A DNA stretch of 51,667 nt from Patescibacteria group bacterium (GTDB lineage: Bacteria > Patescibacteriota > CPR2 > UBA1875 > JAMCYV01), in NCBI GenBank assembly GCA_023473595.1, contig JAMCYV010000025.1:1-51667 (forward strand). Reading direction: 5' to 3'. Shown here piece after piece: positions 30,177 to 51,603 of this stretch. Position numbers and translations under genes: made by a program. The first letter of the stretch is position 1. The number at the start of each line of letters is the position of its first letter. The notes below the pieces were generated by a model. The model was not told the origin of the DNA, did not search any database, and saw only the letters and a list, made by a program, of their open reading frames with translations.

Positions 30177-31250
30177 ATGGCAGCGACCAAGAGCATAAAA
30201 ATAGAAGACCTCTTGGAAGAAGTGGTCAAAAATAATTCTTCCGACCTCCATCTTACTGTCGGAGCGGCGCCAATGCTTCGTATTGACGGAGCCTTAAAGC
30301 CGGTTCCCGATATGTCGCCTTTAAATGCTGATGATGTTGAAGCTTTAACTTTTTCGGTTTTAGACGATGCCCAAAAAGATATCCTTTTAAAAGATAAAGA
30401 AGTCGACTTTTCATTTGCTTACGGCGATGTCTGCCGATTTCGTGCCAATGCCTACCATCAGAAAGGGAACACTGCTCTCGCTCTAAGAATGATTCCGGTT
30501 GAAATCCGAGATTTGGAAAAACTAGGCCTTCCAAAAGTTTGCGGCACCTTTACCGAGTTTCCCCGGGGCTTGGTTTTAGTCACCGGGCCTACTGGAAGCG
30601 GGAAATCAACGACTCTTGCAGCAATGATTGATAAGATCAATTCTGAAAGAAGTGACCACATTATTACCGTTGAAGATCCGATTGAGTATACCCATCAGCA
30701 TAAAAAATCGATTATTGAACAAAGAGAAGTCCATTATGATACCAGGTCCTTTGCGGCTGCCTTAAGAAGTATCCTTCGTGAAGACCCTGATGTTGTTTTA
30801 ATTGGGGAGATGCGAGATCTTGAGACCATCGCGGCGGCGATTACCATCGCTGAGACCGGCCACTTGGTCTTTGCTACTTTGCATACTAACAACGCTGCTC
30901 AAAGTATCGATCGTATCATCGACGTTTTCCCGCCTCATCAGCAGCAGCAGATCAAAGTCCAGCTTTCAAACACCCTTCAAGGAATTGTCTCCCAAAGGCT
31001 TATCCCGGCTTTGGGCGGAGGGAGAGTAGTTGGTGCAGAGATTATGGTGGCGACTCCGGCAGTCCGAAATATTATTCGTGAAGGAAAGACTCATCAGCTT
31101 GATGCTATCATTCAGACTGGGGCGGAACATGGAATGCAATCTATGGATAGGACCCTTGCCGGCCTTGTCAAATCCGGGAGAATTACTGCCGAAGAAGCCA
31201 AGGGCTATGCTATTGATATTCAAGAGCTCGAGAGGCTTATTAGAGGATAA
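30177..31250 (+). CDS. pilT: Type IV pilus twitching-motility (retraction) ATPase PilT
   Basis: 357-aa ORF with GPTGSGKSTT, VEDPIEY, REDPDVVLIGEMRDLET and AETGHLVFATLHTN. Confidence 0.9.
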   Translation: MAATKSIKIEDLLEEVVKNNSSDLHLTVGAAPMLRIDGALKPVPDMSPLNADDVEALTFSVLDDAQKDILLKDKEVDFSFAYGDVCRFRANAYHQKGNTALALRMIPVEIRDLEKLGLPKVCGTFTEFPRGLVLVTGPTGSGKSTTLAAMIDKINSERSDHIITVEDPIEYTHQHKKSIIEQREVHYDTRSFAAALRSILREDPDVVLIGEMRDLETIAAAITIAETGHLVFATLHTNNAAQSIDRIIDVFPPHQQQQIKVQLSNTLQGIVSQRLIPALGGGRVVGAEIMVATPAVRNIIREGKTHQLDAIIQTGAEHGMQSMDRTLAGLVKSGRITAEEAKGYAIDIQELERLIRG

Positions 31251-33080: not shown

Positions 33081-33980
33081 ATGCTGGAACAAATTTTACT
33101 TTTTCTTCTTTTTATCTTTGGTCTTATTGTCGGCAGTTTTTTGAATGTTGTTATTTATTGGCTAGAAAGCAAAGAGAATAGTTTAACTAGACTGGTCATT
33201 CTGGGGACCAACGGGACGCCAGAATCAAAAAAAACAGGTAAAGATTCTGGTCAAGCCAGAATGACGCGAGAGAACTTAGGTGGCCGATCTTTCTGTCCTC
33301 ATTGCCAGCATCAACTTAATTTCTTCGATTTAATTCCGGTAGCAAGCTGGTTTTTTTTAAAAGGGAAGTGCAGATATTGTCGAAAAAAAATTTCTTATCA
33401 GTATCCATTAGTTGAAATTGCTACAGGATTCATTTTTTTGTTAACTTTTACTTACAAAAATTCTATCTTTAATCAACCTAGCTACTTGCTACTTGCTACT
33501 GTGCTACTGCTAATTGTTAACTGTTTACTGCTTACTATCTTCGTTTTCGACCTTAAGCACCAAATAATCCCTGACTCAATCATCTATCCTGCGATTATTC
33601 TCGCTGTTTTTTATCTAATATTCTTAAACGCTAATCCTTTTTCTTTAGGGCCAGTTCTTTTTTCATTAGGCTCTGCTTTTCTTGCTGGCGGTTTTTTCTA
33701 TGCAATTGCTGCTATTTCAGATGGCAAATGGATGGGTGGGGGAGATATAAAACTTGCCTTTCTTTTGGGGCTTCTTCTCGGCTGGCCGAATATTTTGGTA
33801 GGTCTTTTTCTAGGCTTTTTCTCCGGAGCAATCGTAGGTCTTTTACTTATTGCTTTAAAAAAGGAGAAGTTAAATAGTGCTATCCCTTTTGGTCCGTTTC
33901 TTATAGTCTCGGCCTGGGCTACTTTATTTCTAGGGGAAAAGATAATACAATGGTACTTAAGGATTATGGGGTTTAATTGA
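33081..33980 (+). CDS. pilD: Prepilin peptidase (A24 family) PilD carrying an in-frame repeat-derived insertion
   Basis: GSFLNVVIY, CPHC...CRYC, DLKHQIIPD, GGGDIKL. Confidence 0.88.
   Translation: MLEQILLFLLFIFGLIVGSFLNVVIYWLESKENSLTRLVILGTNGTPESKKTGKDSGQARMTRENLGGRSFCPHCQHQLNFFDLIPVASWFFLKGKCRYCRKKISYQYPLVEIATGFIFLLTFTYKNSIFNQPSYLLLATVLLLIVNCLLLTIFVFDLKHQIIPDSIIYPAIILAVFYLIFLNANPFSLGPVLFSLGSAFLAGGFFYAIAAISDGKWMGGGDIKLAFLLGLLLGWPNILVGLFLGFFSGAIVGLLLIALKKEKLNSAIPFGPFLIVSAWATLFLGEKIIQWYLRIMGFN
33195..33265. repeat. Palindromic GTCATTCTGG...CCAGAATGAC element inside the pilD ORF
   Basis: gtcattctgg(33195-33204)...ccagaatc...gattctggtcaagccagaatgac(33243-33265). The last 23 nt are identical to 21415-21437. 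Confidence 0.8.
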
Positions 33981-37131: not shown

Positions 37132-38148
37132 TTATTTTGTTCTCTTCCGGTGATATTTTTGGTGAACTCCCCTTAATTTTTGATTGGTAATATGAGTATA
37201 AATCTGGGTAGTAGTAATTGAGGCATGGCCAAGCATCTCCTGGACGCTCCTAATGTCAGCACCGTTTACCAAAAGGTCAGTGGCAAAGGAGTGTCTTAAG
37301 ACATGGGGAGTGACTTTTTTTAAGATACCGGCTAAAGCGGCGTACTTCTTAATCATCCTTTGAATACTTCTTGATGTCAGTCTCAAGTATTCGCCTTCGT
37401 CAACTCCGCCTTTTGAAAATCGAACGAAGAGGGGTTCGAAATTGTCTTCTCTTTTATTTAGATAATTTTTAATGGAATCCTTGGCTCTCTCGGAAAGAAA
37501 TACGATTCTTTCTTTGCCTCCCTTACCTTTTATTAGAAGCTCTCCTCTATCTAGGTTTATCTGCTTCCTATTTAAAGAAACTAGCTCTGAAACCCGAAGC
37601 CCTGTTGAAAAAAGGGTTTCTAAGATTGCTTTGTCTCGAAGATAAATTAAAGTTTCTTTGGTTGTCATCCCGGCTTGCTTGCCCGTCTGAAGCGAAGCAA
37701 AAGAGGGTCCGGAATCTTGATTCCGGTCTCTCCCGACTTTCGTCGGGATCGCCAGAATGACTTGATAAGGTGCCGCTAAAATTCTTTCCACCTCATCAGC
37801 TTCTAAGAAGTCAATTGTCCTTTTTTCATTTGATCCCAGTTCAACTTTTTCAGCCGTTAAGGTAGGGATATCTCTTTTAGACAGATACTTTAGAAAAGCG
37901 CGAAGGGCGATAATATGGTAATTTTGGGTTATCTTTTTTAAACCTTTATTATCTTCTGTTGGATAACGGTTAAGAAAAAGGCGGTATTTTCTAATAAGTT
38001 CAGGGCTGATTTTATTAGGATTAATATCGCCGGCAAATTCGGTAAAACGGTTTAAATAATGTTCGTAATTTCGAATCGTTAAGACTGAACGGTTTTTTTC
38101 TACCTCTAAGTATTCGAGAAAATCGATTATGAGATCGTTGATATTCAT
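37132..38148 (-). CDS. Tyrosine recombinase XerC/XerD-like with an in-frame repeat-derived insertion
   Basis: SAM-like N domain (YLEVEKNRSVLTIRNY), TGLRVSELVSL, RHSFATDLL, LGHASITTTQIYTH. The ORF track extends it to 38193. Confidence 0.85.
   Translation of the reverse strand: MNINDLIIDFLEYLEVEKNRSVLTIRNYEHYLNRFTEFAGDINPNKISPELIRKYRLFLNRYPTEDNKGLKKITQNYHIIALRAFLKYLSKRDIPTLTAEKVELGSNEKRTIDFLEADEVERILAAPYQVILAIPTKVGRDRNQDSGPSFASLQTGKQAGMTTKETLIYLRDKAILETLFSTGLRVSELVSLNRKQINLDRGELLIKGKGGKERIVFLSERAKDSIKNYLNKREDNFEPLFVRFSKGGVDEGEYLRLTSRSIQRMIKKYAALAGILKKVTPHVLRHSFATDLLVNGADIRSVQEMLGHASITTTQIYTHITNQKLRGVHQKYHRKRTK
37664..37761. repeat. Composite palindromic element (GTCATCCCGG...CGCCAGAATGAC) inside the recombinase ORF
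   Basis: Contains the palindromes ccggaatc-tt-gattccgg (37709-37726) and tcccgac-tttc-gtcggga, plus the terminal inverted GTCATYC words. Confidence 0.75.
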
Positions 38149-38255
38149 AAAACAGTAAACAATTAACAGTAAACAAGAAATATTGTGCGACATAAATATT
38201 GTAGCATTTATGAGAACCTCTAGCTACTCAGAGCTAATCGCTATATACTATATTC

Positions 38256-42253: not shown

Positions 42254-42330
42254 GGCCCCGTAGCTCAGTTGGATAGAGCGAGACACTCCTAACGTCTAGG
42301 TCGCAGGTTCAAATCCTGCCGGGGTCACCA
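42254..42330 (+). tRNA. tRNA-Arg (anticodon CCU), genomically encoded CCA
   Basis: A manual cloverleaf folds as follows. Acceptor ggccccg/cggggtc, D arm gctc-agttggata-gagc, anticodon arm agaca-ctCCTaa-cgtct, T arm gcagg-ttcaaat-cctgc, then discriminator a and cca. Confidence 0.9.
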
Positions 42331-44395: not shown

Positions 44396-44536
44396 TTACT
44401 AGAAATTGGTAGGAAGACTTACAAATCTCTCTTCAAAAATCTTTCATATTTAAGACCTTCTCATAATTATATGTCTCTTTAGAGCGGTTAATATCGGAAT
44501 TGAAAATATGAAAACAATGGTAAGGAGGTGAGGCAA

Positions 44537-44698
44537 ATGGCAGGCCAAAAAGGAAAAATGACTGTTCAGGAAGCTGGCCGAAAAGGCGGCAGGGCCACAA
44601 GTTCTACTCGAGGCCGAGAGTTCTATCAAGAAATTGGAAGAAAAGGCGGCCAAAGAGTCAGGTCTCTCATAAATAAAGGGAAAAAAGCAGGTAGGTAA
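44537..44698 (+). CDS. KGG-repeat general stress protein (GsiB/YciG-like), 53 aa, not in the ORF track
   Basis: AAGGAGGTG lies upstream. Sequence: MAGQKGKMTVQEAGRKGGRATSSTRGREFYQEIGRKGGQRVRSLINKGKKAGR. Confidence 0.75.
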   Translation: MAGQKGKMTVQEAGRKGGRATSSTRGREFYQEIGRKGGQRVRSLINKGKKAGR

Positions 44699-44738
44699 TT
44701 ATTTGGCCAAATAATTAATGCATTAGGAAGGAGGAAAT

Positions 44739-44915
44739 ATGGTGGAAGAAAAAGGAAAAATGACTGTTGAAGAAGCCGGTAAAAAAGGCGGACAAAGAAC
44801 GAGTGAAACCCATGGAAGAGACTTTTATTCTGAAATCGGGAAAATGGGTGGCTCAAAAGGCGGCCAGAGAGTCAAAAGACTGATAGAAGAAGGTAAAGAA
44901 AGGGAACAGCGATAA
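44739..44915 (+). CDS. KGG-repeat general stress protein (GsiB/YciG-like), 58 aa, not in the ORF track
   Basis: GGAAGGAGG lies upstream. Sequence: MVEEKGKMTVEEAGKKGGQRTSETHGRDFYSEIGKMGGSKGGQRVKRLIEEGKEREQR. Confidence 0.75.
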   Translation: MVEEKGKMTVEEAGKKGGQRTSETHGRDFYSEIGKMGGSKGGQRVKRLIEEGKEREQR

Positions 44916-44946
44916 TACTAATTAATCAAATAGGGAGGTGAATAAT

Positions 44947-45168
44947 ATGGCAGAAGAAAAAGGAAAAATGACTGTTGAAGAAGCTGGCCGAAAAGGCGGC
45001 CAGACCACAAGCTCTACCAGAGGTCGAGAATTCTACCAAGAAATCGGGAAAAAGGGCGGAAGGACGACTAGCTCGACTCATGGCCGAGAATTCTACCAAG
45101 AAATCGGGCATAAAGGCGGCCAAAGGGTCCGATCATTAATTGAGGAAGGCAAAGAACAAGAGAGATAA
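44947..45168 (+). CDS. KGG-repeat general stress protein (GsiB/YciG-like), three repeats
   Basis: GGGAGGTG lies upstream of ATG 44947. The unit GRKGGQTTSSTRGREFYQEIG is repeated. Confidence 0.8.
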   Translation: MAEEKGKMTVEEAGRKGGQTTSSTRGREFYQEIGKKGGRTTSSTHGREFYQEIGHKGGQRVRSLIEEGKEQER

Positions 45169-45202
45169 TTAGTAGAGATTACTTTTCTAGGAAGGAGGAA
45201 AT

Positions 45203-45454
45203 ATGGCGGAAGAAAAAGGAAAAATGACTGTTGAAGAAGCCGGTAAAAAAGGCGGACAAATGACAAGCTCAACCCACGGAAAAGACTTTTATTCTGAAAT
45301 TGGAAGAAAAGGCGGACAGAGGGGAGGTCGCAAAGGTGGCGAAACAACAAGTAAAAGATATGGTCACGATTTTTATTCTGAAATCGGGCATAAAGGCGGC
45401 CAAAGAGTCCGGGAGCTAATCAGCGAAGGCAAAGAAACTGAGATAGAAGAATAG
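45203..45454 (+). CDS. KGG-repeat general stress protein (GsiB/YciG-like), four repeats
   Basis: GGAAGGAGG lies upstream. Repeats of the form KKGGQMTSSTHGKDFYSEIG... Confidence 0.8.
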   Translation: MAEEKGKMTVEEAGKKGGQMTSSTHGKDFYSEIGRKGGQRGGRKGGETTSKRYGHDFYSEIGHKGGQRVRELISEGKETEIEE

Positions 45455-45503: not shown

Positions 45504-47420
45504 TTAGAAATTTTTCAAAAATTGAGCAGTGTCTTCTTGCTCTTTCAGGGCCTCTTTAGCCGCCTTTTCAATAGGAATAAAAAATTGTGTCAGGCCGGCG
45601 TCGTCTTCAATAAGCGGTATTTTCTTCAAGGAATCTTTGGATATTTTTATATGTTTAAGGACAGTTTCGCACATTTTAGAAACCGTCTTCTCCCAGAAAA
45701 TCTTTTGGAGAGAAAAAAGATCTTTATCTAAGCAAATTATCCTTTTATTATTTGATTTCATCCATTCTTTGATTAAAGGGACAGAAGCGCTGTTTAAATG
45801 TCCCTTCTTAAGGTCCTTTTCCCAGTCATGCATATCATCATTTATTTGGCGGGCGATAATGTAATTTTTTAACCATTTCGAGGTATTTTTTACCTCCTTT
45901 GAATTTTTGCCATAACCTAAAGAAAGAAGGATTGCAAGGGGCCCCAGTCCATGGCCAAGCGATTTTTCAGCCAAGATAGAATAGTCTTTATAATTTGGGA
46001 GCCTCTTTGGCAAAGTTAGGACTCCTTCTTTCAAATGAGTTCGGCAATTTTCTACCTCCCAAAGATTAGCAAAGTCTATTTTATCCATAATGCCTTTAAA
46101 AACTGGCATAAAATCTTTGTTTTCTACTGGTAAGCTGATAGAAATTACTGTTAGTTCCCTTAAGCAAATGTTTGCCAATGATAATTCCTTGGGTTTTCCT
46201 TCATCATCGAAAAAATCGTCATAAATAGTATAGGCAATCCAGCCATATAGATTAATAAGACCTAAATCGATCAGTAACTTTTTCTGTATTTTTTGTTTGT
46301 TGCCCAATGTCTGGCTGAAAAAGTAAGGCAGGAGGGCAATTTGATCGCCGAGTTCATGGGATTTTATTTCGTTTAAGGTCTTAAGGGCAATTTTTTTTAA
46401 AGCAGGCTCAAGACTTTGGAACTTTTTAGCAGCTTCTGAAAAGATTCTGTTTTTTAAATTTTCTGACTCTTCCGATTCTTTCTTTTCTACATTTGTTAAT
46501 TTTTGGTATTTTAAAAGAGCTTCTAAAAAGAAAGAAGCAGTGAGGGCCGGCGATCCACCAAAAATTTTCCTGCCGTTATGATTTGACTCAATAATCAAAG
46601 GATAAGGCTTAAAAGAACTGTTTTTTAAGAGGTATGATATGCTTTTTTCAAGTTTTTTTGCCGGATAATTTAAGTTTAGAAGCGAGCTTATGGCAAGGGA
46701 TGTGTCCAAAGGATTATTCCAATATCCATTCTTTTTCTTTTTGGCAAGATAATCTATTAATTTTTCTGAATTGCCTTTAAAAGATCTGGAAATAAAATAG
46801 ATTACCGGATACTCGGAAGCATAATAAGGAGAGGAAAATTTACCTTTCTTTACTGCTTCTTCCATTAATTTAGTTAGATTAGGGAGAATGATTTCCTCAA
46901 GGGATAAAAAATAGGCGATATTGGCATTTACCGCTAGATCAATATCTTTCCAGCTTTTTCCAGCGTTTTTTGGGACTAACCAAGTATAATAAGGGCCTCC
47001 TTCTTTTACTTCTAAATTGGTAAGGAGATTTGCTATCTTTGCAAAAATATTCCCTTTAATAAGAGAGTTTTCAGCAAGAAAAAGACCGGAAAGAGCGCAG
47101 AAAGTATCATCCAAATCATCCGGATAGGGCATAGCCTCATATTCTTTAGAATCCTTAACCCAATAATTGAAAGACCAGTTTTTGCTTCTTTCGTTTAAAA
47201 GGAATCGGACAATTTTATTGTTCATTTCTTTTAATTTTTGCTCATCAAAAGGAGCGAGGGAAGCTAAAATAAGGCTAGCCGAAAAGGTTGTTTGTCTTTT
47301 AAGGGGTTTTTGAAAATCTCTGTTTTTGGAAGCGAAATCTATAAAGCTACCATTACTTTTTTGCTGTGAGGCTAAGAACTTTATCGCTTTTTCTTTTGCT
47401 TGATTTAAGTTTTTGGCCAT
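45504..47420 (-). CDS. Fusion protein: N-terminal prenyltransferase/terpene-cyclase-like alpha/alpha toroid (DxDDT) + C-terminal isoprenoid-synthase-like domain (two DDxxD)
   Basis: The 638-aa ORF has AIKFLASQQKSNGSF-type toroid repeats. YPDDLDDTF is at residues 99-107 (nt 47103-47120), YDDFFDDEG at 400-408 (nt 46203-46220) and QINDDMHD at 525-532 (nt 45825-45839). Confidence 0.6.
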   Translation of the reverse strand: MAKNLNQAKEKAIKFLASQQKSNGSFIDFASKNRDFQKPLKRQTTFSASLILASLAPFDEQKLKEMNNKIVRFLLNERSKNWSFNYWVKDSKEYEAMPYPDDLDDTFCALSGLFLAENSLIKGNIFAKIANLLTNLEVKEGGPYYTWLVPKNAGKSWKDIDLAVNANIAYFLSLEEIILPNLTKLMEEAVKKGKFSSPYYASEYPVIYFISRSFKGNSEKLIDYLAKKKKNGYWNNPLDTSLAISSLLNLNYPAKKLEKSISYLLKNSSFKPYPLIIESNHNGRKIFGGSPALTASFFLEALLKYQKLTNVEKKESEESENLKNRIFSEAAKKFQSLEPALKKIALKTLNEIKSHELGDQIALLPYFFSQTLGNKQKIQKKLLIDLGLINLYGWIAYTIYDDFFDDEGKPKELSLANICLRELTVISISLPVENKDFMPVFKGIMDKIDFANLWEVENCRTHLKEGVLTLPKRLPNYKDYSILAEKSLGHGLGPLAILLSLGYGKNSKEVKNTSKWLKNYIIARQINDDMHDWEKDLKKGHLNSASVPLIKEWMKSNNKRIICLDKDLFSLQKIFWEKTVSKMCETVLKHIKISKDSLKKIPLIEDDAGLTQFFIPIEKAAKEALKEQEDTAQFLKNF

Positions 47421-48822
47421 TTTTCTTTATTAATTCCTTTTTCATTGGAAGCTCAATCTTAAAAACAGTTCCTTCTTCTTTATTGCTTTTTGCGGCGATA
47501 GTTCCAGAAAAGTCTTTTTCAATAATATTTTTAGTCATTGCTAGTCCGATGCCCATTCCTTTGCTTAAGTCTTTAGTAGTAAAGAAGGGATTAAAAATTT
47601 TCTCCAAATTTTTTTCCGGTATCCCTTGGCCAAAATCACAAACTTCCAAATTAATTTTATTTTTGGCTTTATAAAGTTTTATTTGGACGGTTTTTCCAAG
47701 CGAGCTTTTATGATAGGCATCGATGGCATTCGTTAAAAGATTAGTTATCGCCTGATGCAATTTCAAAGGATTGCCGAAGATTTTTATTCTCTCACCTTCG
47801 TTAAAAATCAATTTGACATTGGCTTTTCTCGCTTTATAAGAAAGAATTTGAATAGCTTGTTCGACTTCCTTGTTGATTAAAAAGTAAGTATTTATTTCTG
47901 TCTGCTGAACTTGTTTGCGTACAGCACTTATGAAGCTCTCCATCTTTTTTGTCGCTTGCAGAGCGAGTTTTAAATGAGGCTTAATGCTCTCGATTCTTTT
48001 GGAATCTTCTTGCCTCATTTGTTCGAGATTTAGAGAGACGGCTGACAAGGGATTTACTAGATCGTGAAAAATTCCGGAGGCTAGCCACCCGAATTCGGCA
48101 AAGTGGGCCATCTGGGCCATCTTTTCAAGCTGGGTTTTCTGAAGTTCTTTGGTTCTTTTTATAACCCTAATCTCTAAGAGGTCTCTTTCTTTCTTTAAAG
48201 CGGCTTCCGACTGGTGGGCCCTTTTCAAGGATTTTTCTATTTCCCTGTTGTATAGCCAAGAAATAACCGTGATAATTGACAAGGTAATGACAGCGACGAT
48301 AACATCGCTAAAATCAGCGCTTCTGTTCCGCCAATAAGCGTCAGGATGATAGATAGAGATTGATTGGAGATATGACAAAATCAAACAATAGACAGAAATA
48401 GTAAAAGTAGTAATGACTGCTAACCGAGTGCCCATAAGTATGCCGGACATAACGATAATTAAAGAGTAAGTGATAAAGGCTTGAGGAAGGTCGGGACCCC
48501 AGACAAAAACGGTATAAGAGATAGGAGCTGTAAACATAAAGATCAGGATGTAACAGGCCCAGTCAATTTTTCCCTTCTTAGAAAGCCGGTAGAGAAAAAC
48601 TAATATCCCGATAATTATAAGAGCGATCCGAGCGGGGATGCCGGGTACATGATGGAATCTGACAACATCAACAATAATCCTTAAAAGAGCAGCCGAAGCG
48701 AGGATAATTGTGCTTAATAAAATAACGTTTAGGATAAATTCACGACGCCTAATATCCTCCTTCTTTGAGCGAGGCTCTACTAATTTCCTAATCAGTTTTC
48801 TTGTTGGTAAAGGTATTTTCAA
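47353..48822 (-). CDS. Sensor histidine kinase with six-TM sensor region
   Basis: About six TM helices lie in the first 190 aa, with no large loop. H-box FHDLVNPLS, N-box LLTNAIDA, G1 DFGQGI, G2 GMGIGLAM. TTG start. The 3' end overlaps the next gene by 68 nt. Confidence 0.88.
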   Translation of the reverse strand: MKIPLPTRKLIRKLVEPRSKKEDIRRREFILNVILLSTIILASAALLRIIVDVVRFHHVPGIPARIALIIIGILVFLYRLSKKGKIDWACYILIFMFTAPISYTVFVWGPDLPQAFITYSLIIVMSGILMGTRLAVITTFTISVYCLILSYLQSISIYHPDAYWRNRSADFSDVIVAVITLSIITVISWLYNREIEKSLKRAHQSEAALKKERDLLEIRVIKRTKELQKTQLEKMAQMAHFAEFGWLASGIFHDLVNPLSAVSLNLEQMRQEDSKRIESIKPHLKLALQATKKMESFISAVRKQVQQTEINTYFLINKEVEQAIQILSYKARKANVKLIFNEGERIKIFGNPLKLHQAITNLLTNAIDAYHKSSLGKTVQIKLYKAKNKINLEVCDFGQGIPEKNLEKIFNPFFTTKDLSKGMGIGLAMTKNIIEKDFSGTIAAKSNKEEGTVFKIELPMKKELIKKNGQKLKSSKRKSDKVLSLTAKK

Positions 48823-48838
48823 ATCTTAAGGCTTATTG

Positions 48839-48955
48839 TTACTTCTTCCAACCCCAGGGAGAAGCAACAACGGCAGAAGATACGGTGAATGCCTCAAGAG
48901 TTTTATGATCGCGGGCTCTTTTGTCAGTAAGGACTTTTTCGAGCACTTTTTTCAT
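48839..48955 (-). CDS. Small peptide ORF (38 aa), candidate signalling-peptide/RiPP precursor; not in the ORF track
   Basis: AAGGAGGG lies 4 nt upstream of the ATG. Sequence: MKKVLEKVLTDKRARDHKTLEAFTVSSAVVASPWGWKK. Its stop is 16 nt before the HK start. Confidence 0.5.
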   Translation of the reverse strand: MKKVLEKVLTDKRARDHKTLEAFTVSSAVVASPWGWKK

Positions 48956-49032
48956 AAATCCCTCCTTTTTATTATTAGTTCTCCCTTTACTTTAAATTAT
49001 AAGTTGTTAAAGAAAAATTAAGAAAAGATAAA

Positions 49033-49713
49033 CTATTTGGCCAAGTCCAACTTATAGCCTCGTCCGGGGATAGTATATAAAAGCTTTACTTGATTTTTTA
49101 AATGGATTTTCCGCCTCAAATTGGAAACATGGACCTCGATTGCGTTTGAGAAAAGATCGGCATTCATATCCCAGACATGCTCCATAATCATTCCTCTCGT
49201 TACAACGTTTCCTTTATTTCGCATAAGGTATTCCAAAAGCTCATATTCCTTTAAGGTAAGGTAAATTTTTTTATCGCCTCTTTTAAAGATTTGCTTTTTA
49301 GTGTCCAAAACTAAATTATCAATTTTTAAAATATCTCCCTTAGCTTCCTTCGGCCTTCTAAGAAGCGCTCTTATCCTTGCCAGAAGTTCGGCAAAAGAGA
49401 ATGGCTTGGTTAAGTAATCATCGGCTCCGGTATTTAAAAAATCAACTTTGGTAGCGGATTCCGAAACGACAGAGAGCATTAGTATCGGCATATTCTGGCC
49501 GTCTTCTCGGATCTCTTTTAAGACCAAAAGCCCGTCTTTCTCCGGTAAATTCTTATCCAAGATAATGAGGTCATATTCGTTGGTGCAGGCATAATAAACG
49601 CCCTTTTCGCCATCGGTGGCGGTGTCTACTTCGAAGCATTCCGCTTCTAGCATATTTTTCAAAGATTTATTTAAGACTTTATCGTCATCAATGATTAAGA
49701 TGCGCATTTTCAC
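49033..49713 (-). CDS. OmpR-family response regulator (receiver + winged helix)
   Basis: ILIIDDD, DLIILDKNLP, LTKPF, LTLKEYELLEYLMRN...GRGYKL. Confidence 0.92.
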   Translation of the reverse strand: MKMRILIIDDDKVLNKSLKNMLEAECFEVDTATDGEKGVYYACTNEYDLIILDKNLPEKDGLLVLKEIREDGQNMPILMLSVVSESATKVDFLNTGADDYLTKPFSFAELLARIRALLRRPKEAKGDILKIDNLVLDTKKQIFKRGDKKIYLTLKEYELLEYLMRNKGNVVTRGMIMEHVWDMNADLFSNAIEVHVSNLRRKIHLKNQVKLLYTIPGRGYKLDLAK

Positions 49714-49790: not shown

Positions 49791-50516
49791 TCAGATCGGT
49801 AATCTTTTCTTCCTCCAAAAAAGAAGGTAGGTGATAGGTCCGATTAAAATAATTGAAATAACGTAAGTTCCGGAGCCAGCTGTTTTAAAAGTAGTACCGA
49901 CAACTGCTTGAGTTAACAAATAGGCAATGATAATAACATTAAAAATCTGGTTTTCTTTTACAAGCGGAAATTCAGACTTTGTCTGGCGATCCCAATAAAA
50001 AAGACCCGTAAAAATTAAGATTAAAAGAAGGACAAAGCCGCCGGCCGGATTATTCAGGGGCCCGAGCTGGCTTTGCCAGAAAAGAAGAAGAGTCAGAAAC
50101 AAAGCTAAAAAGACAAAAAACGGCCATTTGCTGCCTAATTTTTCTTCTTTTCTAGGAAGGAATTTACCGCCGAAGTAGAAAGGGAGAACGGTCGCCATTA
50201 GCCCCCAAGCAATAATCTGGACGGCGACAATAAACCAGTTAATTCCTAAAAAAAGCGGAGGAGCGGCGTAAAAACTGCGGTGAAGGAAACCCTCGACTAC
50301 AAAGCCGAAAATGGCGCCGGCTAAGAAAAGCTGGCGGTCAGTTAGTTTAAAGGTTCTTATAGCGTTTTCGAGAGTTAAAATATATAAAAAATAGAAAAGA
50401 ATTAAAACCCCCTGGGTGAGAAGCGTCGGTCCATGGGCAAAATACTCGCCGTTTAGAAAGATCGCAAGAGCCGTGATCAATAGTATTCTTAGAAATGAAC
50501 GCAATTTGCCTTGCAT
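49791..50516 (-). CDS. Polytopic membrane protein, unknown function
   Basis: 241-aa ORF with about seven hydrophobic helices. Confidence 0.55.
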   Translation of the reverse strand: MQGKLRSFLRILLITALAIFLNGEYFAHGPTLLTQGVLILFYFLYILTLENAIRTFKLTDRQLFLAGAIFGFVVEGFLHRSFYAAPPLFLGINWFIVAVQIIAWGLMATVLPFYFGGKFLPRKEEKLGSKWPFFVFLALFLTLLLFWQSQLGPLNNPAGGFVLLLILIFTGLFYWDRQTKSEFPLVKENQIFNVIIIAYLLTQAVVGTTFKTAGSGTYVISIILIGPITYLLFWRKKRLPI

Positions 50517-50531
50517 AATTCAATTATAGCA

Positions 50532-50858
50532 TTAGTGAGATACAAAGAATTCGCCGATAAGGAGTATAACAAACAAAGTCCCTATGGCAATGGACGGGTA
50601 AATTAAAAGAGCTCTTTCCTTTTGTTTAATAAAAGCGACCATTCCTGTAACAAATGCGGAAATACCGCAAGCCATACCAGTTAGCATTGAAAGGGAAAGG
50701 AACGGCCTTACAGTAATATCTTCTAAAATAGCCCCGGCCGGTACAGACTTATATAAAGTATTTGCCAAAAGTCCGCCGGTAAAAAATAATACCGGCATTG
50801 CGATGATGAGTAATATCGACCACTTGCCCAGTTTGCTCTTAGGGAAAATAGTTGCCAT
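50532..50858 (-). CDS. Small membrane protein (3 TM)
   Basis: 108-aa hydrophobic ORF, co-oriented with 49791..50516. Confidence 0.5.
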   Translation of the reverse strand: MATIFPKSKLGKWSILLIIAMPVLFFTGGLLANTLYKSVPAGAILEDITVRPFLSLSMLTGMACGISAFVTGMVAFIKQKERALLIYPSIAIGTLFVILLIGEFFVSH

Positions 50859-50956: not shown

Positions 50957-51202
50957 CTAGCTCATGAGATAGCTGGCATAGGCGCGCTCTATTAGCGCGC
51001 GTTCGCTTGGGCTCATTTGAATCCTATAGTATGAGCCTCGAAGCAGCTCTCCGACTACCTCGCGAGCTCGGTTTTCAGTCCCTTTCGCGCTTGGCGAATC
51101 GAAGATCAAATGATCCCTTTCGGCTTGGTCCAGCAAGCTGTCTATGAGGTGACCAGGGAGACCAGCATTCCCCGCCGCCTCTCTGATTTCAGAGGTGCAC
51201 AT
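50957..51202 (-). CDS. Hypothetical protein, G+C-rich, paralog of 51214..51456
   Basis: AAGGAG lies 5 nt upstream. It shares A(A/G)xAG(V/L)PxHLI...L..AE.DH..F.S.S......RA.E.V..L and a C-terminal Y(L/F)MS with its neighbour. Confidence 0.55.
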   Translation of the reverse strand: MCTSEIREAAGNAGLPGHLIDSLLDQAERDHLIFDSPSAKGTENRAREVVGELLRGSYYRIQMSPSERALIERAYASYLMS

Positions 51203-51213
51203 TATCGCTCCTT

Positions 51214-51456
51214 TCAGCTCATAAAGTAGTGCTGAAGCTCACAGACGATTGTCATGTGAGCATCAGGGCCCATCGAGATGCCGGCCGTGATAAGTCTCTG
51301 GACTGCTTCTTGGGCACGACTGTTTGCAGGTGCTTCCGACTCGGAACCGAAGAAGGAGTGATCAGACTCAGCGTTGCTAAGCATCTTTTCGATCAAGTGC
51401 TCGGGGACTCCGGCGGCTTCTGCTGCCGCTCTGACTTTCTTCAAACTGCCTTCCAT
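51214..51456 (-). CDS. Hypothetical protein, G+C-rich, paralog of 50957..51202
   Basis: The start was moved to the internal ATG (MEGSLKK...), which lies 6 nt after GAGGAGGA. The ORF track extends it to 51522. Confidence 0.55.
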   Translation of the reverse strand: MEGSLKKVRAAAEAAGVPEHLIEKMLSNAESDHSFFGSESEAPANSRAQEAVQRLITAGISMGPDAHMTIVCELQHYFMS

Positions 51457-51603
51457 TTCTAATCCTCCTCTGTAGGAATAACTGATTTCGCTTATTATAT
51501 AATAATTTTTATGCTTTGTCAATCTTTCTTAAATCGGTCTTATCCAGGGTCCAGACATCTTGGACACTTTTAGCTGAATCATTAAGAATGGAAGGAGTTA
51601 AAA

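Follow-up and report, generated by a model that had tools for sequence, protein, structure and literature searches.

A conserved four-gene module of Patescibacteria joins a short tryptophan-bearing peptide to a putative prenyltransferase-cyclase and a two-component system

Bacteria in the candidate phyla radiation (CPR, Patescibacteria) live as obligate epibionts and have genomes of about 1 Mb with very few regulators; little is understood of the ways in which they perceive one another or their hosts. Here we ask what is encoded by four tightly packed genes on a contig of a Patescibacteria group bacterium (GTDB lineage CPR2; UBA1875; JAMCYV01), namely JAMCYV010000025.1 of assembly GCA_023473595.1, whose 51,667 nucleotides are hereafter referred to as the window. 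A previous reading of the DNA letters (the original prediction) had proposed a module for prenylated-peptide signalling resembling ComQXPA of Bacillus, or for producing a ribosomally synthesised peptide that is post-translationally modified (RiPP). The genes encode a response regulator, a 38-aa peptide, a sensor histidine kinase and a fusion enzyme that combines a class II terpene cyclase domain with a domain that has a trans-isoprenyl-diphosphate-synthase (trans-IPPS) fold. Our analysis indicates that this module probably serves ribosomal-peptide signalling by terpene modification, in which Trp34 of the peptide would be prenylated, the prenyl group cyclised and the product sensed by the kinase.

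All four genes were found on the same strand at exactly the coordinates that had been predicted, including the 68-nt overlap between the fusion and kinase genes (Table 1). This overlap is real, because residues 1-22 of the fusion enzyme, including an invariant Gln20, align with its homologues. For the fusion family, a word-indexed search gave 830 matches, with full-length relatives at 35-49% identity, and an exhaustive search yielded 1,922 clusters (50% identity) at E<=1e-3, of which 1,065 reached E<=1e-30. Some homologues carry a precomputed PF28380 assignment. We sampled 80 loci, each representing a GTDB species, and called and then clustered their open reading frames (ORFs). The largest clusters were those of the kinase (87 members), the regulator (85) and the enzyme (80), and the commonest local order was regulator, kinase, enzyme, all co-directional. 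Linkage was then tallied with tblastn and hidden Markov models (HMMs) in the 63 loci whose sequence extends 2.7 kb or more upstream of the fusion gene. In 59 of these the kinase gene directly adjoins the fusion gene on its upstream side and is co-directional with it; in 61 it lies within 2.5 kb, the remaining two comprising one split kinase and one gap of Ns. A regulator homologue is present within 5 kb in 55 loci, the peptide was found in 62 (the 63rd, L012, has a divergent copy), and the complete set of four genes occurs in 54. The synteny of the fusion gene with the two-component genes, on which the original prediction had made the functional link depend, was thereby borne out. With the peptide included, the order in the window and in most loci is regulator-peptide-kinase-enzyme, and the independently made gene calls of JGI and ENA give the same order.

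Kinase loss was considered for five loci (L004, L016, L027, L030 and L036) and rejected, as tblastn shows intact kinases there. An alternative genetic code was likewise rejected as an explanation of the apparent kinase gaps, with an in-frame stop in only one of eight aligned segments (one TAA close to where the L036 match ends). When the sensor domain of the kinase was the only query, the search returned five fragmentary matches, all from error-prone long-read assemblies that retain the same gene order.

The loci cover CPR2, Microgenomates-type, Parcubacteria-type, Doudnabacteria and Saccharibacteria lineages and range from 26 to 61% GC. All named sources of the fusion family are Patescibacteria, apart from a few automatically labelled metagenome-assembled genomes (MAGs) that are named otherwise and have a CPR-like GC content. 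Seven such records (L009, L010, L014, L043, L044, L062 and L077) are labelled Gammaproteobacteria, Vitreimonas, Methylomirabilota, Bacillota, Dormiibacterota or Sulfotelmatobacter. Their local gene content is CPR-like, and their local GC is mostly 36-43%, with L062 and L077 at about 54%, inside the range of the Saccharibacteria loci. These labels are probably mislabels from automated pipelines.

The small ORF, whose product is MKKVLEKVLTDKRARDHKTLEAFTVSSAVVASPWGWKK with Trp at positions 34 and 36, is a real, conserved gene. An ORF of 34-45 aa similar to it is present between regulator and kinase in nearly every locus. We built an HMM from 20 of these ORFs and ran it on 34,229 six-frame stop-to-stop segments of the loci. 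In about 70 loci it found a single strong match each (E 1e-17 to 4e-6; 1.4e-17 for the window peptide), lying directly upstream of the kinase in every case, and no other significant match among all segments. Since about 60 independent species-level loci share this gene set, with proteins 33-48% identical, and each has a single strong peptide match, the module is far beyond chance; and given the wide GC range of the loci, the peptide is conserved at the protein level. Ahead of the peptide start, 48 of 71 loci have an SD-like (Shine-Dalgarno-like) 4-mer. In L081 the peptide was called independently by JGI as a 47-aa gene, and the copy in L012 is recognisable (KKLLKKVFINKVIRDT...TTLVWS) and has no canonical start codon.

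Peptides of this family are about 37 aa long, and their conservation is strongest over the first 15 residues. Alignment of 70 of them with hmmalign showed Leu9 and Arg15 to be invariant, with Thr10, Asp11 and Lys12 frequent. Every one of the 70 contains Trp, 68 have a single Trp, and in 58 a Pro stands directly before it. The Trp is followed by one to six residues, never by none, a position near the C-terminus comparable to that in ComX (e.g. ...QWGD). The conservation of the small ORF anticipated by the original prediction was therefore found, together with an invariant Trp near the C-terminus. As for the residue to be modified, Trp34 or Trp36 had been named: the former is the family-conserved one, in a Pro-Trp pair, and the latter turned out to be lineage-specific.

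On the side of signal reception, the regulator is OmpR-type as expected, with Pfam matches to Response_reg (E 5.3e-30) and Trans_reg_C (E 2e-23) and GerE reaching merely E 0.03. The kinase has a clear HATPase_c domain (E 1e-22). Its dimerisation and histidine phosphotransfer (DHp) domain had been assigned to the HisKA type; the Pfam match to HisKA is weak (E 8e-4, below the cut-off), and the H-box reads FHDLVNPL. The best kinase matches are AtoS/ZraS-like. The prediction of a sensor made of six transmembrane helices without a sizable extracytoplasmic domain agrees with a crude Kyte-Doolittle scan, in which we found six segments, a longest loop of about 22 aa and no extracytoplasmic domain. Among 69 kinase family members, six hydrophobic segments were counted in 32, five in 23 and four in 10.

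The peptide is tied most tightly to the kinase, because the two genes stay together in rearranged loci. In L047 and L073 both are inverted together with respect to the enzyme gene, and L057 has the same inversion with the kinase interrupted by a run of Ns. This arrangement bears on the strongest rival explanation, according to which the fusion enzyme does modify the peptide and the product is an effector (an antimicrobial, a membrane-active lipopeptide or a host-interaction factor), the kinase sensing some other membrane or envelope cue. Products of known fused transferase-cyclases are natural-product-type RiPPs, one of which, from the 2024 work of Hubrich, reportedly has modest anti-cyanobacterial activity; many RiPP clusters contain regulatory two-component systems, and the evidence pairing enzyme and peptide is silent on what the kinase senses. 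Nevertheless, we consider an effector unlikely. The peptide gene remains joined to the kinase gene even when the pair is inverted, and no conserved immunity or export genes accompany the module. Moreover, the module is single-copy and retained across a phylum of reduced genomes, and its sensor is polytopic and loop-less, of the kind typical of peptide- or lipid-sensing kinases; for these last two reasons a signal fits better than a weapon.

What chemistry could the fusion enzyme perform? Its AlphaFold2 model has a predicted local distance difference test (pLDDT) score of 90.3, and all Foldseek matches of the N-terminal domain are class II terpene cyclases, among them drimenol synthase AsDMS (9mhs, E 7e-9), MstE (6sbg, E 3.4e-6), 342-aa proteins like squalene-hopene cyclase (SHC; 8pak/8paj) and drimenyl-diphosphate synthase. 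A PDB sequence search with the single 638-aa sequence gave no match, and drimenol synthase was reached only by the family profile, which finds the AsDMS cyclase domain (9mhs) at E 3.3e-12. The family segment PYPDDLDDT aligns with FPDDLDTT of AsDMS, so that Asp104 corresponds to the Asp that is replaced by Asn in the crystal form D333N; across 69 sequences both Asp102 and Asp104 are invariant. As fold and profile both match AsDMS and the catalytic Asp aligns with the invariant Asp104, the N-terminal domain is, as judged from its sequence and modelled fold, a bona fide class II terpene cyclase, in accord with the toroid/DxDDT domain of the original prediction.

A loop of the enzyme, EVKEGGPYYTWLVP (residues 137-150, window positions 46971-47012), also attracted our attention. 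Glu137, Gly141, Gly142, Pro143, Tyr144 and Trp147 are invariant, and residues 138-143 and 145-150 are the sole segments of the model with pLDDT below 50. This loop may be a mobile lid or a substrate-binding loop.

The C-terminal domain, in which a DDxxD prenyl-synthase-like domain had been recognised, does have the trans-IPPS fold of known Trp prenyltransferases. Modelled alone with AlphaFold2, it reaches a pLDDT of 94. Foldseek matched it to polyprenyl and trans-isoprenyl-diphosphate synthases (E ~3e-4) and to the Trp prenyltransferase Ord1 (9v4g/h/i, E ~2e-3); the Ord1 matches head the list by target-normalised TM-score (0.63-0.69), with a root-mean-square deviation of 5.1 among the lowest. 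The top 50 matches include no class I terpene cyclase. Class I terpene synthases are marked by a Terpene_syn_C-type alpha domain having DDxxD plus an NSE/DTE triad; against Terpene_syn_C_2 the domain scored E 0.0012, below the cut-off, and D528/D532/D536 could be read as a DDxxDxxxD triad. Asp401 and Asp405 of the first Asp-rich motif (FARM) and Gln525, Asp528, His531, Asp532 and Asp536 of the second (residues 524-536, RQINDDMHDWEKD) are invariant in the family. In chain-elongating synthases the FARM is followed by RRG (xxRRG), part of the segments that bind isopentenyl diphosphate (IPP). The present family reads DDFLDxEGxP instead, and the DxEGxP in place of xxRRG argues against IPP condensation by this domain. 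The spacing of Gln525 and Asp528 equals that of Q216 and D219 in Ord1. All characterised trans-isoprenyl-diphosphate-synthase-like (trans-IDS-like) transferases that do not elongate target Trp, and in them a Gln just upstream of the second motif and the first Asp of this motif recognise the indole (PMC13290415). Beyond these observed folds and motifs, we infer that the substrate would be the adjacent peptide and the chemistry Trp prenylation.

The same features must be weighed against the possibility that the fusion enzyme makes a free cyclic terpenoid, with the C-terminal domain as an elongating or ionising synthase, the N-terminal domain as its cyclase and the peptide in an unrelated role, for example as a modulator of the kinase. 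The nearest solved relatives of the N-terminal domain use free farnesyl diphosphate (FPP), both Asp-rich motifs are kept in the C-terminal domain as in true synthases, and a polyprenyl synthase gene is often adjacent. We judge this explanation quite improbable: it gives no reason why the enzyme should be accompanied in essentially every locus by a peptide whose one invariant Trp lies near the C-terminus, the C-terminal domain misses PF00348 and has no RRG segment after the FARM, and a Trp prenyltransferase, Ord1, is among its best structural matches. The adjacent synthase is canonical (PF00348, E 6e-47, ~345 aa) and adjoins the module in 17 of the 80 loci, where it directly follows the enzyme gene on the downstream side or stands between regulator and peptide; on the signalling reading it would serve prenyl supply. 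The loci listed with it are L005-L009, L011, L027, L040, L052, L053, L056, L060, L063, L066, L071, L075, L076 and L080. In addition, a gene for a protein like S-adenosylmethionine-dependent methyltransferases (~238 aa, IGCGRG motif) was observed between kinase and enzyme in L037 (1635-2351) and L067, and in L027 (3763-4470), where it may represent an extra tailoring step. Neither gene lies beside the module of the window.

The remaining rival, very improbable in our view, takes the small ORF for a regulatory leader peptide (a ribosome-arrest or attenuation upstream ORF with a critical Pro-Trp) that controls the kinase and enzyme genes and is no substrate: the ORF does sit 16 nt upstream of the kinase start, and arrest peptides such as TnaC and SecM depend on a conserved Trp or Pro, but the peptide is most conserved in its N-terminal 15 residues, its Trp-to-stop distance varies from one to six codons while arrest peptides conserve a C-terminal tunnel segment and a fixed stall site, and the space before the kinase start is too small for an attenuator hairpin, with no Rfam element found.

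Signalling by a terpene-modified peptide could proceed as follows. The 38-aa gene would be translated, and the conserved N-terminal leader (LTDKxxR) would serve as the recognition handle. The C-terminal domain of the enzyme would bind a prenyl diphosphate through DDxxD and Mg2+ and pass its prenyl group on to the invariant Trp (Trp34), at the indole. The N-terminal domain would then protonate the distal double bond through Asp104 of DxDDT and cyclise the attached prenyl chain. The lipophilic product, possibly trimmed, would partition into the membrane, where the six-helix intramembrane sensor of the kinase would detect it; both the export of the product and its pairing with this kinase are parts of the proposal. 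The kinase would phosphorylate the OmpR-type regulator, which probably re-activates the peptide-kinase-enzyme operon via direct repeats ahead of the peptide gene.

Further examination of the sequence upstream of the peptide gene revealed such repeats. In the window, TTTTCTTAA and TTTTCTTTAA stand 10 nt apart, followed by TATAAT. In nine other loci (L004, L005, L015, L022, L024, L030, L039, L041 and L064), a TCTTTAC-like heptamer forms two or three direct repeats with a periodicity of 10-11 bp beside a -10 element (often TTTGATATAAT). This layout is that of OmpR/PhoB-activated promoters and, by analogy, suggests that the regulator induces the peptide-kinase-enzyme operon. It is possible, if somewhat short of probable, that the CPR hold an ancestral, phylum-wide and self-inducing pheromone system, in which the peptide carries a cyclised terpene on its Trp and a dedicated six-helix kinase reads it within the membrane.

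A second upstream element was also observed. The hexamer GGTCGA, usually as (A/T)AGGTCGA(G/A), occurs 26-54 nt upstream of the peptide start, in the presumed 5' untranslated region, in 20 of 71 loci compared with about one expected (L001, L003, L004, L005, L007, L013, L015, L017, L022-L024, L027, L030, L038, L039, L041, L045, L046, L059 and L064). These loci mostly belong to lineages without a strong Shine-Dalgarno sequence, and the window has a degenerate version at 48978-48990. Rfam gave no match, either within the module or in the regions 5' of the peptide genes, this element included.

Several results weigh against terpene-modified peptide signalling. The C-terminal domain matches no Pfam or NCBIfam family, and PF00348 gives no match at E<=0.1. 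Membership of the ComQ family was ruled out by hhalign (probability 0.35% against 12 ComQ sequences, only the FARM aligning). Since the domain has no significant sequence similarity to ComQ or to any family, its assignment as a prenyltransferase rests on fold, motifs and context. Its profile found no significant match among PDB sequences either, and its comparison with the adjacent canonical synthase family gave a 10% hhalign probability, with a local alignment of QxxDDxxD to the FQxxDD of the second Asp-rich motif (SARM). As for precursor supply and maturation, the ten other window ORFs scanned include no isoprenoid gene, and near the module in the 80 loci no conserved exporter, leader protease or immunity gene was found. 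The paired TCTTTAC motif, defined post hoc, is present in a minority of loci (7 of 69, with about 0.25 expected). Pairwise distances of the peptide vary together with those of the C-terminal domain (rho 0.50), the kinase sensor (0.46) and the regulator (0.33), which would place the peptide closest to the first two and furthest from the regulator and so speak weakly for the proposal; these differences are small and confounded by shared phylogeny, and they are suggestive only.

How does the module compare with known systems? The proposed likeness to ComQXPA holds in logic. One locus combines an enzyme of the isoprenoid-synthase fold with DDxxD, a small Trp-containing precursor, a polytopic kinase and a response regulator, and, as for ComX, the ribosomal precursor is encoded beside enzyme and kinase and has its Trp one to six residues from the end. 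The module is nevertheless not a member of that family, differing in enzyme family, regulator type and gene order. ComQ belongs to PF00348/IPR033965 and has a FARM and a pseudo-SARM (NDxxx), whereas the module enzyme has a full QxxDDxxD, shares only the fold and adds a class II cyclase domain. ComA is NarL/FixJ-type and the module regulator OmpR-type; the module kinase, unlike ComP, has about six membrane segments and an HDLxNPL H-box. The order comQ-comX-comP-comA contrasts with regulator-peptide-kinase-enzyme, and the hosts are Firmicutes and CPR, respectively.

For the enzymology there is precedent, because fused prenyltransferase-cyclases are already known. ChrPC and NctPC are described as prenylating an internal Trp of ribosomal peptides and then using an MstE-like domain to cyclise the prenyl group (PMC13290415, citing Hubrich et al. 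2024, Chem 10:3224). According to that account, each unites a prenyltransferase and an MstE-like monodomain class II cyclase in one polypeptide, the transferase of ChrPC being trans-IDS-like. As far as the account goes, the module shares with the ChrPC type, at the level of fold and motif only, a cyclase with a DxDD acid, a trans-IDS-like domain and an adjacent peptide with an acceptor Trp. It differs in that its cyclase domain is N-terminal, its precursor is very short (~37 aa) with its own type of leader, and it is hard-wired to a two-component system and phylum-wide rather than sporadic. The study of Hubrich and colleagues is said to deal with proteusin, Nif11 and lasso precursors.

In the PalP-PalX-PalQ cluster of Paenibacillus alvei, a kinase gene stands together with a precursor whose Trp is C-terminal and with a Trp prenyltransferase of the trans-IDS-like kind that keeps the SARM aspartates (PMC10853753). 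PalX, however, is NHLP-type, and PalQ strictly requires Trp as the last residue, which it never is in the present family; PalQ has no cyclase domain, and the description of this three-gene cluster names no response regulator (PMC10853753). MstE (6sbg) and the cyclase domain of AsDMS (9mhs, 9m7d) share with the module the single alpha/alpha-toroid and the DxDD(T) acid motif, and MstE cyclises a prenyl chain already on an aromatic ring, the chemistry proposed here. Those enzymes, either stand-alone or HAD-fused, have small molecules as substrates, whereas the module cyclase shares its polypeptide with a trans-IPPS-fold domain and is linked to a peptide gene. Ord1 (9v4g/h/i) and StheQ/StheX exemplify prenylation of the Trp indole by an all-alpha trans-IPPS fold, and StheX, like the module peptide, has its Trp near the C-terminus (bioRxiv 10.64898/2026.08.29.745113). 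Ord1 farnesylates free Trp, in contrast, and StheQ is homologous to ComQ and has a pseudo-SARM; both lack a cyclase domain, and no linked two-component system has been described for them. Chain-elongating trans-isoprenyl diphosphate synthases differ from the C-terminal domain by their PF00348 match and RRG segment.

The features of the module are collected in Table 1.

Table 1. Coordinates of the module and its elements in the window
Feature	Position	Strand	Details
Module of four ORFs	45504-49713	-	
OmpR-family response regulator	49033..49713	-	226 aa; receiver and winged-helix DNA-binding domain
Precursor peptide ORF	48839..48955	-	38 aa
Leader of the peptide			MKKVLEKVLTDKRAR, with invariant Leu9 and Arg15; then a variable middle, Pro33-Trp34 and a 4-residue tail
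Shine-Dalgarno sequence of the peptide gene	48961..48967	-	AAGGAGG, 6 nt before ATG
Putative regulator-dependent promoter of the peptide gene	48996..49026	-	Lead only
Direct repeats and -10 element	49026-49018; 49016-49007; 49001-48996	-	TTTTCTTAA; TTTTCTTTAA; TATAAT
Sensor histidine kinase	47353..48822	-	489 aa; polytopic membrane sensor, DHp with His253, HATPase_c
Sensor region of the kinase	48253..48726	-	Residues 33-190; six hydrophobic segments with short loops (Kyte-Doolittle scan)
Cyclase/trans-IPPS-fold fusion enzyme	45504..47420	-	638 aa
N-terminal domain, monodomain class II terpene cyclase (alpha/alpha toroid) as judged by sequence and model	46416..47420	-	Residues 1 to ~335
DLDDT acid motif	47103..47117	-	Asp102-Thr106, within PYPDDLDDT (residues 98-106)
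C-terminal domain, trans-isoprenyl-diphosphate-synthase fold, proposed Trp prenyltransferase	45507..46406	-	Residues 339-638
First Asp-rich motif (FARM) DDFFD	46206..46220	-	Asp401-Asp405, within YDDFFDDEG (residues 400-408)
Second motif	45813..45848	-	Q525-I-N-D528-D-M-H531-D532-W-E-K-D536 (QxxDDxxDxxxD)

Besides the module, the window contains several other genes. Four tandem genes on the plus strand (44528-45454) encode lysine/glycine-rich proteins of 56-83 aa with KGG stress-protein repeats (the last matching PF10685 at E 5.8e-15) and are convergent with the end of the enzyme gene. Upstream of the regulator and co-directional with it (minus strand) are genes for membrane proteins of 241 and 108 aa (49791-50516 and 50532-50858), which have no family match and no counterpart among the other loci and are therefore placed outside the conserved module. 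At higher coordinates on the same strand lie two adjacent paralogues of 81 and 102 aa (50957-51202 and 51214-51522) that were assigned to no family and have the common motif ...AAG(V/L)P(E/G)HLI(E/D)...L..AE.DH. Elsewhere in the window (30177-31250, 33081-33980, 37132-38193 and 42254-42327) we identified genes of type IV pilus type for a T2SSE ATPase and a prepilin peptidase A24, together with a tyrosine recombinase/integrase and a tRNA gene.

The original prediction was also aware of no such system in CPR-like bacteria, and our literature search, which included the genetics and genome papers on Saccharibacteria, found no description of the module in CPR; a passing mention of CPR homologues in Hubrich et al. 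2024 is possible. The only work on quorum sensing in Saccharibacteria that we found concerns, to judge by its title as cited, the relationship of TM7x with its host. What appears to be new is the combination of a prenyltransferase-cyclase, a dedicated family of very short precursors and a hard-wired two-component system across a phylum of reduced genomes.

If our reading is true, the ultra-small CPR episymbionts would have their first known cell-cell (or density- or host-contact-) signalling system, and its signal would be the first bacterial pheromone bearing a cyclic terpenoid moiety. Terpene-cyclised RiPPs would no longer be confined to sporadic natural-product clusters and would take on a core signalling role. 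A large and compact family of cyclase and Trp prenyltransferase enzymes with very short substrates would also be added, which would be attractive for peptide lipidation tools. The proposal is directly testable in genetically tractable Saccharibacteria. The retention of the module over CPR2, Microgenomates-type, Parcubacteria-type and Saccharibacteria lineages suggests that its function is important and ancient.

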